This document shows, in pieces, positions 4,011 to 64,000 of a stretch of 64,000 nt of DNA. The notes beneath the pieces are model-generated. The model was given only the letters and a program-made list of their open reading frames with translations, had not been told where the DNA came from and searched no databases. This DNA comes from Octopus vulgaris (Eukaryota): assembly GCA_951406725.2 (NCBI GenBank), contig OX597833.1, forward strand, positions 36,952,001 through 37,016,000, read 5' to 3'. The position numbers were made by a program, and so were the translations under genes. Every line of letters starts with the position of its first letter. The first letter of the stretch is position 1.

Positions 4011-6238
4011 CCCTTTGAACCCGCCAGGCCGGTTTTTCAGCCTGTGTATAGTATATACACCCACTAGGCCGATAACTTCTTAACCAATAAAAGACCGTTT
4101 TATATCACAGTTTAGGCTTCTATTCACGACCGAACTTCCGAGAGGAAGCTTCCAGAATTTTTTAGACTTAAATTGCAGAATTTTGATGATTTCTTTTGCT
4201 ATAAACATGAACGGTTAGAAAATGACAACCGATAAACCATTACGAATGATTATGTGGATTCTGATGATAAGAATGGAGAGTCTGATTATGAAAATAACTG
4301 TGATTTTGAGAGCGAAGAGAATGAAGATGATGTTGTCAACAATACAAGTAATAATAATAACACGAGAGCAAACGAAGGAGAAAAAAAAATGATAGTGACT
4401 TTTTTGATAATCACGACCCAGGTGATGATGTTTTACAACCTGTCAGGGGGCGTGGTCGCGGTAAAGGACGTGGTCAAGGTGTGCGACGTATTTCTCAGCC
4501 ACTGTCTGATCAGCGTCAGTGGACAAGTGACAATAGATCGTACACTGAAAAACAATCCAATCCTTAAGAAACACCCAGTCCCCAAAATATTACAGATTCA
4601 ATGAATAATGAGCGCAGCCCTGCTGACTGTTTCACTTTATTCTGAGATGATGATTTGTGGCAGTTCTTTGTCTATGAAACTAATAGGCAGGCAGAACATA
4701 TCAGAGAAGCAAAGCCCTCAAATTATTATGCAAAATCCTTTAGTTCTCAGGCCTTGACAATATCAAAGATAAATGCATTTTTTGGTTGTCGAGTAGCGAT
4801 GGAAATGCTTATTCACAAAGATAACTATGAACAATATTGGCGAGATAAGGAAAAGTTCTTGTCCATCACACTTGGATTTGCACAAGTTTTTACAAGAGAT
4901 AGATTTTTAGCAATGTGGTCTATACTATATAGTGTATATGAACTAAACCCAGAACAAGACAAATCTGACAAGATTTACAAATCCAGGCCCGTGTTCAATC
5001 ACTTGCTAGAAAAATTCAAGTTGCATTACACACCGAAAAGCAATTTGTCACTTGACGAGGAAATGATTCCAATAAAAAAATCCGTCTATAAAACAGTATA
5101 TCAGAGACAGACCGATAAAGTGAGGAATCAAAACATTCCTTGTTTGTGATAGTGAGAATGGCTATATTTCAAAAATGAGAAGTATATACAGGTCGTAGGA
5201 AGGATATTGAAGCAATTGAAAACCTTGATGTGACTGGAAACATTGTTGTTCGTATGTTGGAACCGTTTTGTGACCAATATTACTATGTGTTTACAGACAG
5301 ATTCAACACTAGTGTATATTTGTGTGAGTTCTTGTTGGAAAATAGGAATCTGCTTAGTAGATACTTACAAATCGAAAACTTTTCCCCAAAAATCTCAAAT
5401 CAAAAATTCAAATACGCAGGGGTAAATTTGAACTCATATTCAATGAATTTTAGCAGCGATTGTTTGGTGCCACAAGAAGCCCATTTATTTTGTAACTTCT
5501 GCATCTATAACCCATCTACCCCAGTACAAGTACAAAGGTACGACAGTAAAAAGCACAGAAGACTTCCTGTGGTTTACCCAAAAGCTCTCCAAAATTACAA
5601 TACACACATGCGTGGCACCGATAAAAATGACCAACTTATTAAACTGCATCGGAGCAGACGTCATTACAAATGGCCACGTCGTCTTATCATGAAGTTTTTT
5701 ACGTGGGCCACGTACGTTATCATGGGACATTATAAGCTGCATAATCCCCAGGGGAAAAGTGCGTTTACATTCCATGCGTTTGTTGGAAAACTCTGCCATG
5801 AACTTGTAGGCAATTATCGCCGACTGTTAACGAGGAAAATACATCCGAACACAGACAAACGCAGAGCTTCCCACGCAACTTTGAACAATAGGGTGTAGTG
5901 TGCCTAGGAAAGCAACAAAATTCAAGTGCTGCATATAAAGACCTTTCCAAAAAGTCAAAAACAGTTCACTAGTATAATTATTGTAAAACTATCTTGTACG
6001 TCGGAGTACCACGGCAAAATTGCTGGCACAACTGGCACGCTAAAGTTCAGTTTTGGAGGTAGAAGTGAGAAAATAAAATAAACAACATGAAATAGGTATT
6101 TATTTGTTTATTTATCATAAATAACAACAAAAAACTCGGACATGAATAAAAAATAAATCATAACTGAATTTTTTGCAAATTTTCACTGGGAGATCAGGGT
6201 GGAGACCATGTCAAGATGGGCTCGTAGGGTTCAAAGGG
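4011..6238 (+). mobile_element. piggyBac DNA transposon, full-length but defective (2228 bp)
   Basis: Perfect 12-bp TIRs ccctttgaaccc (4011-4022) / gggttcaaaggg (6227-6238), TTAA TSD at 4007-4010 and 6239-6242, internal transposase remnant. Confidence 0.95.
4222..6062 (+). pseudogene. piggyBac (PGBD4-like) transposase with frameshifts and stops
   Basis: Acidic N-terminus; motifs FTRDRF, DKIYKSRP, LSLDEEMIP, FTDRFNTS and YNTHMRGTDKNDQ in ORF pieces 4655-5149 and 5230-5898; start position approximate. Confidence 0.9.
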
Positions 6239-41935: not shown

Positions 41936-42000
<65 letters not shown>

Positions 42001-42025
42001 CATTATTATTATCATTATTATCATC

Positions 42026-42096
<71 letters not shown>

Positions 42097-42140
42097 CATT
42101 ATTATTATTATTATTATTATTATCATTATTATCATCATCA

Positions 42141-42180
<40 letters not shown>

Positions 42181-42224
42181 CATCATTATCATTATCATTA
42201 TTATTATCATCATCATTATTATTA

Positions 42225-42284
<60 letters not shown>
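41896..42284. repeat. (ATC)n/(ATT)n compound microsatellite; (TAA)n tail or target of the adjacent LINE
   Basis: Direct read. Confidence 0.95.
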
Positions 42285-42287
<3 letters not shown>

Positions 42288-42492
42288 TAGTCTTATTTTT
42301 ATCACGTGCTTTCACCGTACTACCGAGCGCAGCACTGTATGCCTTGGGTATGTGCTGTGGTTTGTTATGGTGCTCTTATTTTCACTGTATTGAAAGTGTT
42401 TTACGTAGGATGTGAGCGGTGTCTAGTAGTGCTATTTTCTGCGTTATATATACTGGTGTTTTTGTTATGTATTTGTCTGAATGTCTTTTTTT
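42285..42492 (-). mobile_element. 3' end of an R4/Dong-like non-LTR retrotransposon
   Basis: Minus strand encodes QKIALLDTAHILRKTLSIQ* (R4/Dong QK..LLGTAHILRK motif), then a short UTR running into (TAA)n. Confidence 0.8.
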
Positions 42493-43519
42493 AACATAAT
42501 AATTTGAATTTTTATTTATTCAAGCATCTGTTACTTGCATAACAGATGCTTCCACCGTTTCTGTTTGATATTGTCTATTGAACCTAGACTTTTAACTTGT
42601 AAGTGAGGATAGGGTAGTTAGTCTACTTTTGAACGGTCAATAGACCGTTCGAATGCAGGCTAACCCCTCTCTTGTAAGAAGCTATTGAGTAACTGTTAGG
42701 TCAAGCTTAGTGTTTACAAGCATTATGGACCTTTGTTATTCATAAGTCTAGTTTAGCTGATATTCTGTTATAGGAAACGTATTTACAAACACGTTTCTCT
42801 GTTTCTCATCCCTTCCCATTCCATATATACATATGTTCCTTTTGTCTTAAGATAAAAGATGGATATTCGACTGAGAAACAAATCTCAAACGTTGTATTTT
42901 AAGCAGCAATTAAGAACAGAAACAATAAGAAACGGAAACAACATTGATATTGTTTCGTTCAATAGTTGACATTTCACAATTATCGTATTCATATTATGAC
43001 AGAAAAATAATTCTTTATAACTCAACTCATAAATGCCTTGAGTATACTGTTTCGCAAGTATTACTTTACAGGAATGTAATACAAGCAAATCCAAAGACGT
43101 TGTATTTGGTAAAGCAAATATGTTAATAACAATGATTTATCACAATGGCAAAATGCAGTAAATGTTTGGAGTGAGAAGACATAACATGATAGCAAATCGT
43201 TGGAAATGATCGATCAACAGTATGGGCAAGATACTTATCCATATGTTTAAAATCTTCAATAGAAACCATAATCCGAGTGTATCATCTTTAGATATCGAAA
43301 CATTTGCCAATAAATGATTTTAATAGATATGTTTATAGTTTCTATTGTTTACAACACATTAATGCATATTAGGCCATTCCTCTCGCGGATAATTATCTGT
43401 TGAGGAAAAATCTTAAATGACCAATATGCTTTGTATTGGAACGTGCCAATGAATTCTACATTCTTAGTATCGATGATGCATATGTGTATGTTTGTGTGCG
43501 TGTGGTGTATATAGATATA

Positions 43520-43577
<58 letters not shown>

Positions 43578-44066
43578 AGTATATATACATACCTATATGT
43601 ATGGTATATATATATATATAAATCATTTCTGTATGATAAAGGTAAATCTTTCTGCCCCGCTTTGTAACGATGAAATGTATTTCATCCCGTTCTAAGAGAA
43701 TCCTCTTGTAAACACGTTTAAAGAACGCGTTTGTCGTTGCAAACATTGGTAAAAACATACCTTTAGTTCCTATAAGTGATTTCTACCATTCTATAAAATT
43801 CGACCTTTAACTGTTTTCTTCTATTTCAATTCCACTAAATATATATACTTCCAAGCCTTTAAGCTTTATTCCTGTTCACCTATCGCTCTATATCTCTCTA
43901 CTATTAGTTTTTTGCTAATTTCTTTCTTTCTACTCCTTCTCTTTCTATAAACTGCTTTTGATGTTATATCAACGGTTTAAAAAAAAACTTGCTAGCATTC
44001 CTTTCATCATATACGCAGTCATCACATTCTCTTAAAAATATCTTACTGATGTGTTTGGTTTCTTTC

Positions 44067-44154
44067 TTTTCCTGATGAGAAGATTGCATTGTGCTACATC
44101 ATTTTATTCCTTCCGGAATAATACCAATGTTTTCGTCGAAACATATGTCGGAAG
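44067..44154 (+). ncRNA. Type I hammerhead ribozyme-like motif
   Basis: CUGAUGA at 44072-44078, long imperfect stem II containing hairpin ttattcc/ggaataa, GAAA at 44138-44141, palindromic stem III CAUAUG, UC at 44148-44149, weak stem I. Confidence 0.55.
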
Positions 44155-44191
44155 TAAAAAGATTTGAATAACACCTGCGTTTTTTAACTGC

Positions 44192-44264
<73 letters not shown>

Positions 44265-44282
44265 ATATAAGAAACATTGCAG

Positions 44283-44487
44283 CGTTCGATTGTTTACTAA
44301 CATTTAAGTTTAATTTGTCAAAATATTTTCGTTCGCTAAAATCCGCGACCTGTTCACTAATTTGTCAAAATATTTTCGTCGCTAAAATCCGCGACCTGTT
44401 CACTGACAAAGTCAGTGAACAGGTCGCGGATTTTAGCGACGAAAATATTTTGACAAATTAAACTTAAATGTTGAAGTGAATCGAACG
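44283..44487. repeat. Long palindrome (perfect 50-bp arms, 3-nt loop) with a tandem duplication in the left arm
   Basis: 44358-44407 is the exact reverse complement of 44411-44460; 44311-44357 duplicates the arm; the outer flanks also pair. Confidence 0.95.
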
Positions 44488-44595
44488 GCTTTTGTGTGTT
44501 TCTTAAATGGCTTATAAACACCTTCCACGCTGCAATTGTTTTCGTTTCAGCACACGATCTCAGATCAAATTACTTGCTATGCGAGTACATCTCCG

Positions 44596-44645
<50 letters not shown>

Positions 44646-44657
44646 TATATGTATAAG

Positions 44658-44688
<31 letters not shown>

Positions 44689-44766
44689 GGTATATGTATA
44701 AGTATATATATATATATGATATATATATGGTGTATATATATACGGTATATATATACACATATATAT

Positions 44767-44804
<38 letters not shown>

Positions 44805-44808
<4 letters not shown>

Positions 44809-45010
44809 TAATCCAAACATGAAAACACAAAGAGAAAACACAACAACGCGAGGACGTGGAACAAATATAGTGTTATTGGACTCTCAGGAAGGAAGAGAAG
44901 AAGGAGGGCTTTACGTTTCGAGCGGAGCTCTTCGTCAGAAACATAGGAAAAGGAAAGATCCAGAGAAGGGAAGACGGAGGAAAAACATCGCCAACAGTAC
45001 ACACACGGTC
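44805..45010 (-). mobile_element. Penelope-like pseudo-LTR / retrozyme-like unit
   Basis: Same layout as 35097-35335 (pyrimidine-rich leader, hammerhead motif, T-rich tail into (TA)n). Confidence 0.55.
44908..44942 (-). ncRNA. Minimal hammerhead ribozyme-like motif (PLE type)
   Basis: Minus strand GUUU-CUGACGA-A-GAGC UCC GCUC-GAAA-CG-UA-AAGC: intact CUGANGA and GAAA, palindromic ACGU stem III, 4-bp stem I. Confidence 0.65.
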
Positions 45011-45741
45011 GTTTTATCGTCGTCTCCCTTATACCAGGAAAGAAGAGGCAAGCATAGACATTTTAAGCGAAAAAGAACTTAAAAGTCATTTATGCATTGT
45101 ATTCAATTATGCCTATTCTCCTAGAAATTGAATTTTTATATTTTTATTATTCTAGTTCTAGAGCTTTAACCGCAGTATTTTATCACCAGCAACATTTTTT
45201 ACTTGATATTTGAAAGAAGTTTAGTGACGCTGCTCTCATATGTATAACTTGTTATATGGTCATCTTGGATTATACATAGCATACTGCCCGAACCTTGCTC
45301 GAATCTGGCGTTATCTACTCCATACATATATGTTGGGGCATATTGAAGAACGGAATATAGTACTCACTCGGAATGGAGAAGGAAGAATACTAAACATAGT
45401 GAAGTAGTGTTTACTTTGGGAATTTGCATAACACACAATACGGTAGCGGGAGTTTTTTTTTCTTTCCAGATACATACGACTCATTCACATTCATCCACTT
45501 GCACACACAGGTATGCATATTTATTTACATGCACACATAAACACACTCAGTTTAAACTGTTACTTCGTTTCAGCACCTGGTTTAGCTTCCTGGTTTGACT
45601 CATTTCAAATGTTGCACATGCACAATACAACAGGTGGGTAATTTGGACAGAATAACGAATCTGAGAATTTAACATTTTTTTAAGGAATATATATGCATGC
45701 ACACACACACATACATATAGACAGATAGAGAGGGGGAGGGG

Positions 45742-46128
<387 letters not shown>

Positions 46129-46814
46129 GACACACGCTCACATACATATAATTAAAGAAGTTAAAATCTGTACCGAACCAACAAATTCATTTGGTTGGAA
46201 TTTATTCTGGTCTTCGGCGTATTCTTGGATTGGGTGGCGCACTTCGTTTCATGTTATTCCATTATACTCAGCTAAAACGTATACCAGCATTAGTTCGGGG
46301 ATAACACTGCATTAGACTAGCGCTCCATCCAGCAGATATAAAGAGTAAAGCGATGGACAGATAGACTCTTAAACGCGTACAAATTCTTATAAATATATGC
46401 GTGTTTGAGTGCATATGGCTGCGCATATGTATGTGTGTCTGTACATGTGCGTATGTATGTATGTATGTATGTATGTATGTATGTATGTATGTGTGTGTCT
46501 GTACATGTGCGTATGTATGTATGTATGTATGTATGTATGTATGTATGTATGTATGTATGTATGTATGTATGTATGTATGTATGTATGTATGTATGTATGT
46601 ATGTATGTATGTATGTATACAGATTATACTTCGTAAGGTTAAGTAATTAAACAGCTTTTCAATTCGCCATAACTGATCGCCTGCAGCGATGTATTCGCCT
46701 TAAGATAATAAGCCTGTTTAATGGATTTGAAAATATAAAAAAAGTAACCTAGAAAGTCAGTCTATATAAACAACACAAATTAAACGATCAGGAAGGCAAT
46801 TCAGCCCGTATACG

Positions 46815-47129
<315 letters not shown>

Positions 47130-63490: not shown

Positions 63491-64000
63491 GTAATCTGTA
63501 AATAAAAGGGATGGAAGAGGTAGTCGAGTACTACAGCTGTTTCAAAAGCACATCGGGTGCATCTTACGTAACATTACGAATGTCTTGTACCCGTATTATG
63601 TACTTTTTCATCAGGTACATGCGACTGCTTAGTTGAAAATAGTCTATCGTAATGGAGAATGTAAAAGAAAGTCAGGCTAACAAAAAGAATTTTTAAAAAA
63701 AGAGTGGAGATTGGAATAGGGGAAAGAACCAACGGCGTGCCCTACTCAAGTAACCTACTACCGTTACCTTACTTTGAACGTATTTTCCTTTTTCTTTATC
63801 TTCTTCTTTCCTCTTCCCTGTTTTTCCCCATATGAACTTTTATTACTCATATTTATCTACCCTAAGCAATAAACATCACAGCTTCTACCGCTCCGGTTGC
63901 CCATTATTGACGCCACACACACATTTTAATGAAATTATAATCTACTGCAGCCATTGCAATAATTTGAGTATGCTGATAACAAAATGTAACTACATCTTGC

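Follow-up and report, generated by a model that had tools for sequence, protein, structure and literature searches.

Minimal type I hammerhead ribozymes have been described in the pseudo-LTRs of Penelope-like elements (PLEs) (Cervera and de la Pena 2014, PMC4209133), where U3-A8 is the only covariation reported in the sections drawn on here, and natural U3-A8 hammerheads are known (PMC3088659). For this and the other papers cited, our comparisons draw on selected sections. In the laboratory, G8C alone lowers the cleavage rate 10^5-fold, with only partial rescue in the double mutant (PMC8495972); for a PLE hammerhead dependent on the element's protein, C3G/G8C double mutation brought back part of the cleavage (PMC11167929). 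Cutting by the anole PLE hammerhead requires protein, and unprocessed RNA is the main template (PMC11167929). An inverted 5' copy and an optional tail are PLE structures described in PMC8557442 and PMC11167929. For octopus, the supplement of Craig et al. 2021 (PMC8557442) includes Hydra-1_Obim, a PLE with a hammerhead and a (TA)n preference that represents a family other than A, B and C below. A survey of octopus repeats (PMC13282606) gives 190 Penelope-like families, hammerheads not being mentioned in the sections used, which makes it probable that a repeat library already contains A, B and C.

Here we analysed a 64,000-nt stretch of the Octopus vulgaris genome (hereafter the window; GCA_951406725.2, contig OX597833.1, positions 36,952,001 to 37,016,000), in which a sequence-only reading had placed three hammerhead-like motifs, A, B and C, beside (TA)n tracts. 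We consider it highly probable that these are three different PLE 3' ends, each with a minimal type I hammerhead and likely inserted successively at (TA)n, and that the natural G3:C8 swap in B yields what is predicted to be a weak but working ribozyme.

Layout of the stack and elements A and C

The three motifs were found at their proposed places, and each is tied to a different PLE, in agreement with the proposal of three separate families (Table 1). The description of the motifs as abutting (TA)n tracts holds for the elements and not for the motifs, as the 3' ends of the elements adjoin the tracts and the motifs themselves lie 40-150 nt away. All four 3' ends of the stack face the two inner tracts.

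Table 1. Features of the hammerhead stack (positions in the window).
Feature	Position	Strand	Remarks
(TA)n tract	43508..43620		Element A is 5'-truncated at this tract
Broken C-terminal remnant of a Hydra-like GIY-YIG ORF (CxxC..E..N..CxH)	43620..43779	+	Frameshift and stops; from translation; other copies have longer pieces
Motif A, type I hammerhead	44067..44154	+	C3:G8; stem II arm long, stem III an 8-nt palindrome; predicted cut after 44149
(TA)n tract	44195..44269		Separates the 3' end of A from the 3' end of the inverted B copy
Inverted tail-less B copy	44270..44410	-	Internal 46-47-nt duplication
Complete G3:C8 hammerhead inside the inverted B copy	44410-44361	-	G3 44403, C8 44398; predicted cut after 44368
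B end-piece (pseudo-LTR) with tail of ~60 nt	44410..44597	+
G3:C8 hammerhead of the + strand B end-piece	44411-44454	+	G3 44415, C8 44420; predicted cut after 44450
(TA)n-rich tract	44598..44804		Borders both B and C at their 3' ends
C end-piece, solo pseudo-LTR of a Neptune-like PLE	44805..45010	-
Minimal hammerhead of C	44942-44908	-	C3:G8; predicted cut after 44912

The palindrome at 44.3-44.5 kb is an ordinary inverted PLE end. An inverted partial copy lies at the 5' side of 21 of 30 B copies in an unbiased set, and since such inverted 5' copies occur in described PLEs, the palindrome is explained. The 46-47-nt duplication has left a third, partial copy of the B motif at 44311-44357. A transcript through the palindrome is predicted to fold into a long hairpin (-102 to -108 kcal/mol), in which the + strand motif is fully sequestered, while stems I and II of the - strand motif persist at its tip. 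Because the palindrome would fold back on itself, the + strand motif at this locus is unlikely to be active, whatever the rest of the family does. Elsewhere in the window, a fourth type I hammerhead was observed at 63528-63614 (-), with a C3:G8 core, a long stem II arm and a ACAGCUGU stem III, and two more PLE ORF remnants lie just past the right end of the window (L123:2448-3194 and 4535-5248).

Motif A is composed of stem I (44067-71), CUGAUGA from 44072, the long stem II arm, GAA and the palindromic ACAUAUGU, followed by H17 (C44149) and stem I' (44150-54). Stem II carries one mismatch in this copy; most other copies read GAAGA/UCUUC. The predicted fold is only weakly better than shuffles (z -1.2). 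The exact pattern gave 125 matches and 0 in the reversed control, such counts being lower bounds for all three families; 85 of the first 100 have C3:G8, and no A site was present in 400 kb of background. An endonuclease piece lies upstream of the motif in 15/29 loci, the window's own included. The longest reaches the GIY-YIG region, in which the two inner cysteines are absent and CxxC and CxH flank a conserved E and N, features matching those of Hydra-clade endonucleases (PMC8557442, section 11). A thus appears to be a truncated Hydra-like PLE, a clade name given by motifs rather than by a tree; no full-length A ORF was recovered among the loci examined. A is likely the oldest of the three, its copies being 84-90% alike compared with best matches of 94-99% for C and B.

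Motif C reads CUGACGA-A, stem II GAGC/GCUC, GAA and ACGU, with H17 at A44912, and its fold is likewise only weakly better than shuffles (z -1.8). Exact matches numbered 2,475, with 0 in the reversed control, and 400 kb of background held 7-8 C-like sites. In two of the 30 copies that reach further 5', a broken RT/GIY-YIG ORF lies 1.1-1.7 kb upstream; its CX4CxxC-type endonuclease we take to be Neptune-like. The C end-piece would accordingly be classed with a Neptune-like PLE, the ORF link coming from these two broken loci and the clade name from motifs instead of a tree. Cores of 30 unbiased copies comprised 14 CCGACGA (U4C), 8 CUGACGA, 6 with other changes and 2 without a match. Fourteen of 30 copies begin 10-13 nt before one motif, the starts lying at a TCATT-like site. 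Two candidates for full-length C elements (L257, L291) were rejected, having no PLE ORF inside, and a PLE N-terminal coding fragment was noted directly 5' of another C copy (L240:1330-1490). As hammerheads, A and C are ordinary for PLEs.

Family B: core, relatives and coding element

The B core reads GUGAACA with one extra G, followed by a 5-bp stem II, GAA and a palindromic AAUAUU stem III, with U as H17. In hammerhead numbering, it carries G3 and C8, the reciprocal of the usual C3:G8 pair, so that the CUGANGA core present in A and in this copy of C is absent from B. The motif stands on both strands of the palindrome, with a stem I of 4 bp on the + strand and 7 bp on the - strand; in the predicted fold of the - strand copy, stems I and II are closed around an open core (z -3.4, 0/200 shuffles as good). 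We obtained 4,939 exact pattern matches for the family and 0 in the reversed control, and among the first 100 matches, 96 carry G3:C8 and 0 carry C3:G8.

Conservation was assessed in 30 copies picked by upstream sequence, four of which were omitted as too short. Among the remaining 26, the core letters were G3 in 26, C8 in 24, A13-A15.1 in 26 and G12 in 25. GAAA and a UH ahead of the predicted cut are present in the motifs of the stack. Minor letters amounted to 3.2% in the core, 5.7% in the stems and 5.0% in the 3' flank, and neither core nor stems were significantly better conserved than the 3' flank (p 0.20 and 0.52; 26 copies). Most of the variation fell in loop 2, where 5/8 columns were variable versus 0/12 in the core. 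Assembled contigs from four sequencing runs of three organisms displayed no variant of at least 5% at position 3 or 8. G3:C8 cores with an ACGU stem III were not enriched (9 matches versus 19 in the control), and two of those nine are old B relatives. Two diverged, single-copy relatives of this age (L376:1500, L379:1500) keep G3:C8, differ in loop 2 and at position 7 and have an ACGU-type stem III. The G3:C8 pair of B, which had escaped the sequence-only reading, is the unusual part of the locus and is best regarded, from sequence, as a well-supported natural core variant of a known hammerhead kind. No natural G3:C8 hammerhead was found in the literature searched; figures, supplements or papers outside the search may show one. 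An Rfam scan of 42000-47000 returned 47 matches at E<=10, none of them a hammerhead.

The closest relative of B in the genome, a sister family with at least 150 near-identical copies, shares 54% protein identity over 814 aa. It has the same hammerhead scaffold with the core CUGAUGC, and C3:G8 in 30/30 copies. The differences from B are paired throughout, in stem I (CCA/UGG versus GUCA/UGAC in B), stem II (GUCAC/GUGAC versus GUCGC/GCGAC in B), stem III (AGAACU versus AAUAUU in B) and at 3:8. These compensatory changes, together with the topology, bear out the earlier assignment of the motifs to PLE-type minimal type I hammerheads with a palindromic stem III. The sister family is itself off consensus: in 30/30 copies core nucleotide 9 is C and the stem III palindrome is imperfect. 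The B lineage may thus have relaxed its core. Its loci (L217:8085-8130 and L342-L371) contain a 1312-aa frame, with copies 98-100% alike.

A descriptor that leaves positions 3 and 8 free gave 13 matches in about 480 kb (40 arbitrary 10-kb stretches, or 400 kb, plus the window and flanks) and 1 match in five shuffles of background plus window, which places the occurrence of such motifs beyond chance. Twelve of the 13 have a Watson-Crick 3:8 pair; the descriptor is too strict for this A copy, given its stem II mismatch. In 1.68 Mb of fetched loci, eight distinct families with at least two copies were all paired at 3:8 (5 C:G, 2 U:A, 1 G:C), and two shuffles gave 2 matches, neither paired at 3:8. 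Since A, B, C and related ORFs guided the choice of these loci, match numbers are not genome proportions, and the distinctness of families is the analyst's call; two further multi-copy descriptor groups are B variants and were excluded from the eight. U3:A8 cores occur in two young PLE families (L156-L159: C7, C8, C11, C6; L160-L167: C2, C1, C3, C4) that have numerous intact 784-aa frames, and one of them, N1, also has GCA in place of GAA.

By walking upstream through 423 B copies with a longer 5' side, we reached the ORF of the family. In 11 of the 12 best loci, the G3:C8 motif lies on the same strand as the PLE ORF, about 1.0-1.1 kb behind the stop; in the twelfth it falls outside the locus and is seen in L199. 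One locus has an open frame of 1025 aa with DKSG, YVDD, a CX3CxxC linker and GIY-YIG (Pfam 1.8e-5), and the closest named homologue (57%) is labelled Octopus. B is therefore read as the end-piece of a coding PLE. With the endonuclease remnant of A and the broken frames of C, this accords with the expectation that autonomous RT/GIY-YIG ORFs share these ends. The first partner candidate, a GIY-YIG ORF in L114 belonging to N1 (many 784-aa frames), was rejected, as B stands behind it in only 3/30 loci and N1 has an end of its own; a B piece is present in 4/30 N1 loci. L198, a candidate for the full-length B element, has no PLE ORF inside.

The families had been described as non-autonomous. This applies to most B and C copies, which are solo end-pieces of ~210 nt with a preferred 5' start, and not to the families, each of which is linked to a coding PLE. 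The start lies 1-4 nt ahead of one motif in 17/30 B copies, and 3' ends are of two kinds about 60 nt apart, 14/30 with the tail and 16/30 without. Read against the branch-point and splice-site consensus, the region just upstream of B (L168-L197), where most short copies start, shows an ACTAAC resembling a branch point, then a pyrimidine run and a YAG that is CAG or TAG depending on the subfamily; this arrangement could be a splice acceptor or an initiator-like start. Directly behind the 3' end of one B copy, an uninterrupted 182-aa dCMP-deaminase-like frame was observed (L102:1594-2139, +), possibly a retrocopy. The 400 kb of background contained 7 B sites; at a density of about one B and one C site per 55 kb, a 2.8-Gb genome would hold some 50,000 copies of either family.

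Insertion at (TA)n and competing readings

The proposed association with (TA)n was upheld: (TA)5 occurs at the 3' end of 22/30 B, 23/30 C and 18/30 A copies, versus 2-4/30 at 1 kb and 13-18% of background tiles. In a set of A copies chosen by BLAST and scanned over a shorter interval, no (TA)5 excess was seen (8/29 versus 6/29). Since 13% of 160-nt tiles contain (TA)5, targets are common, and with A copies of the order of 2,000 (a figure assumed from 2,205 first-look candidates and not a copy number), a small number of A-B-C stacks is to be expected by chance. It is most improbable that the three motifs make up a single composite unit, or that they mark the insertion hotspot which had been suggested. 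That all four 3' ends face two inner tracts is in keeping with such a unit, as is the presence of C no more than 700 nt from B in 3/29 BLAST-chosen B loci; against it, 6/147 anchored loci had a second of the three families at most 700 nt away, where background densities predict about 4.6, and the A-B-C order recurred in none of the other fetched loci (90 loci). The stack is incidental, and nothing out of the ordinary in a genome where PLEs and (TA)n abound.

In PLEs, AT-rich DNA is nicked by the GIY-YIG nuclease, and reverse transcription of the RNA begins at either of two internal sites. The stack most likely arose by three independent target-primed insertions into (TA)n, A first. Uncleaved RNA would have been the insertion template; that copies keep the whole hammerhead fits unprocessed RNA as the main template (PMC11167929). 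Most B and C copies would derive from short RNAs with a fixed 5' start, moved in trans by coding elements. The hammerheads may cut only as dimers via the palindromic stem III, or with the help of the element's protein, and the swap in B may have been fixed because the Watson-Crick 3:8 pair was kept.

An undescribed retrozyme system, in which tandem non-coding hammerhead repeats spread via RNA circles, is very unlikely, even though B and C are represented mainly by short non-coding copies sharing a favoured 5' start and a preprint argues for an origin of animal retrozymes from PLE ends (10.64898/2026.07.22.740005). Copies in the window and in the sampled loci are solo or inverted and not head-to-tail, the one-off 46-47-nt duplication being the only repeat of this sort here; the motifs are minimal, with an extra nucleotide after A9 in B and C; and A, B and C have coding partners. 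With Hydra-1_Obim already listed as an octopus PLE with a hammerhead and (TA)n, the sequence-only reading is not supported on this point.

More weight attaches to the possibility, which we regard as rather doubtful, that the locus holds the same three PLE ends but that the B core no longer cuts, the fold being kept as a protein-binding or folding signal or hitchhiking with a successful family. The core is not significantly more conserved than the flank among copies, and the uncleaved motif is present in all of them; for the anole element, hammerhead mutants inserted in vitro as before, and the cleavage site yielded no RNA ends (PMC11167929). Relatives also depart from the consensus, with C9 in the sister family, GCA for GAA in N1 and U4C in 14/30 C cores. 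On the other hand, both partners of the pair have changed reciprocally and the other core letters of B are all kept, 3:8 is Watson-Crick in 8/8 families when the positions are left free, and the double mutant is partly active in vitro. We put forward, tentatively and as somewhat short of an even chance, that B is a naturally evolved functional G3:C8 hammerhead on a recently active retroelement, one whose copies number in the tens of thousands and which searches based on CUGANGA do not see.

Comparison with described systems

With the G3:C8 family, nature provides a test of the C3-G8 tertiary pair, until now backed by laboratory double mutants and natural U3-A8, and a close C3:G8 sister together with near-identical coding copies provides a ready comparison of what PLE hammerheads do and whether cutting is needed. 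Standard descriptors and Rfam miss an element that is present about once per 55 kb. If B is functional, hammerhead censuses overlook whole families, and, taken with U3:A8, A9C, U4C and GCA-for-GAA in its neighbours, PLEs here may tune their ribozymes down to slow dimer-gated or protein-gated switches.

Element A resembles Hydra-clade PLEs including Hydra-1_Obim (Craig et al. 2021, PMC8557442) in the CxxC/CxH around E and N, the lack of the two GIY-YIG-internal cysteines, the (TA)n preference and a hammerhead with a longer stem III; relative to the hammerhead of Hydra-1_Obim, that of A differs in sequence and carries a long stem II insert. With Nematis and Neptune EN+ PLEs (PMC8557442), B shares a C-terminal GIY-YIG with two internal cysteines, a CX2-5CxxC linker, a pseudo-LTR, a tail and an inverted 5' copy. 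Its endonuclease resembles the Nematis rows of Fig. S2, a placement made from motifs and not from a tree. B differs in a ~1-kb (CATA)n-rich 3' region ahead of the hammerhead and in a tail of ~60 nt, longer than the 30-40 nt in print for EN+ PLEs. Non-LTR retrozymes (Cervera and de la Pena 2020, PMC7229834) have in common with the A, B and C ends that they are short, non-coding, hammerhead-bearing animal repeats; theirs are 150-450-bp tandem repeats with canonical hammerheads and RNA circles, whereas those here are solo or inverted PLE ends with minimal motifs.

Among the described systems close to these are the minimal type I hammerheads in PLE pseudo-LTRs (PMC4209133), with which the present motifs share the topology, the short palindromic stem III, G10.1-C11.1 and, for B and C, the extra nucleotide between 9 and 10.1; they too are mostly solo copies from truncated elements, with opposite-strand pairs near each other. 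The rows consulted of that 56-motif alignment have only C3 or U3 cores and no cephalopod, whereas B has G3:C8. The laboratory C3G/G8C double mutant (PMC11167929, PMC8495972) exchanges the same two core letters as B; by contrast, B, known from sequence alone, is natural, the swap being fixed both across thousands of copies and among coding elements that are near-identical.
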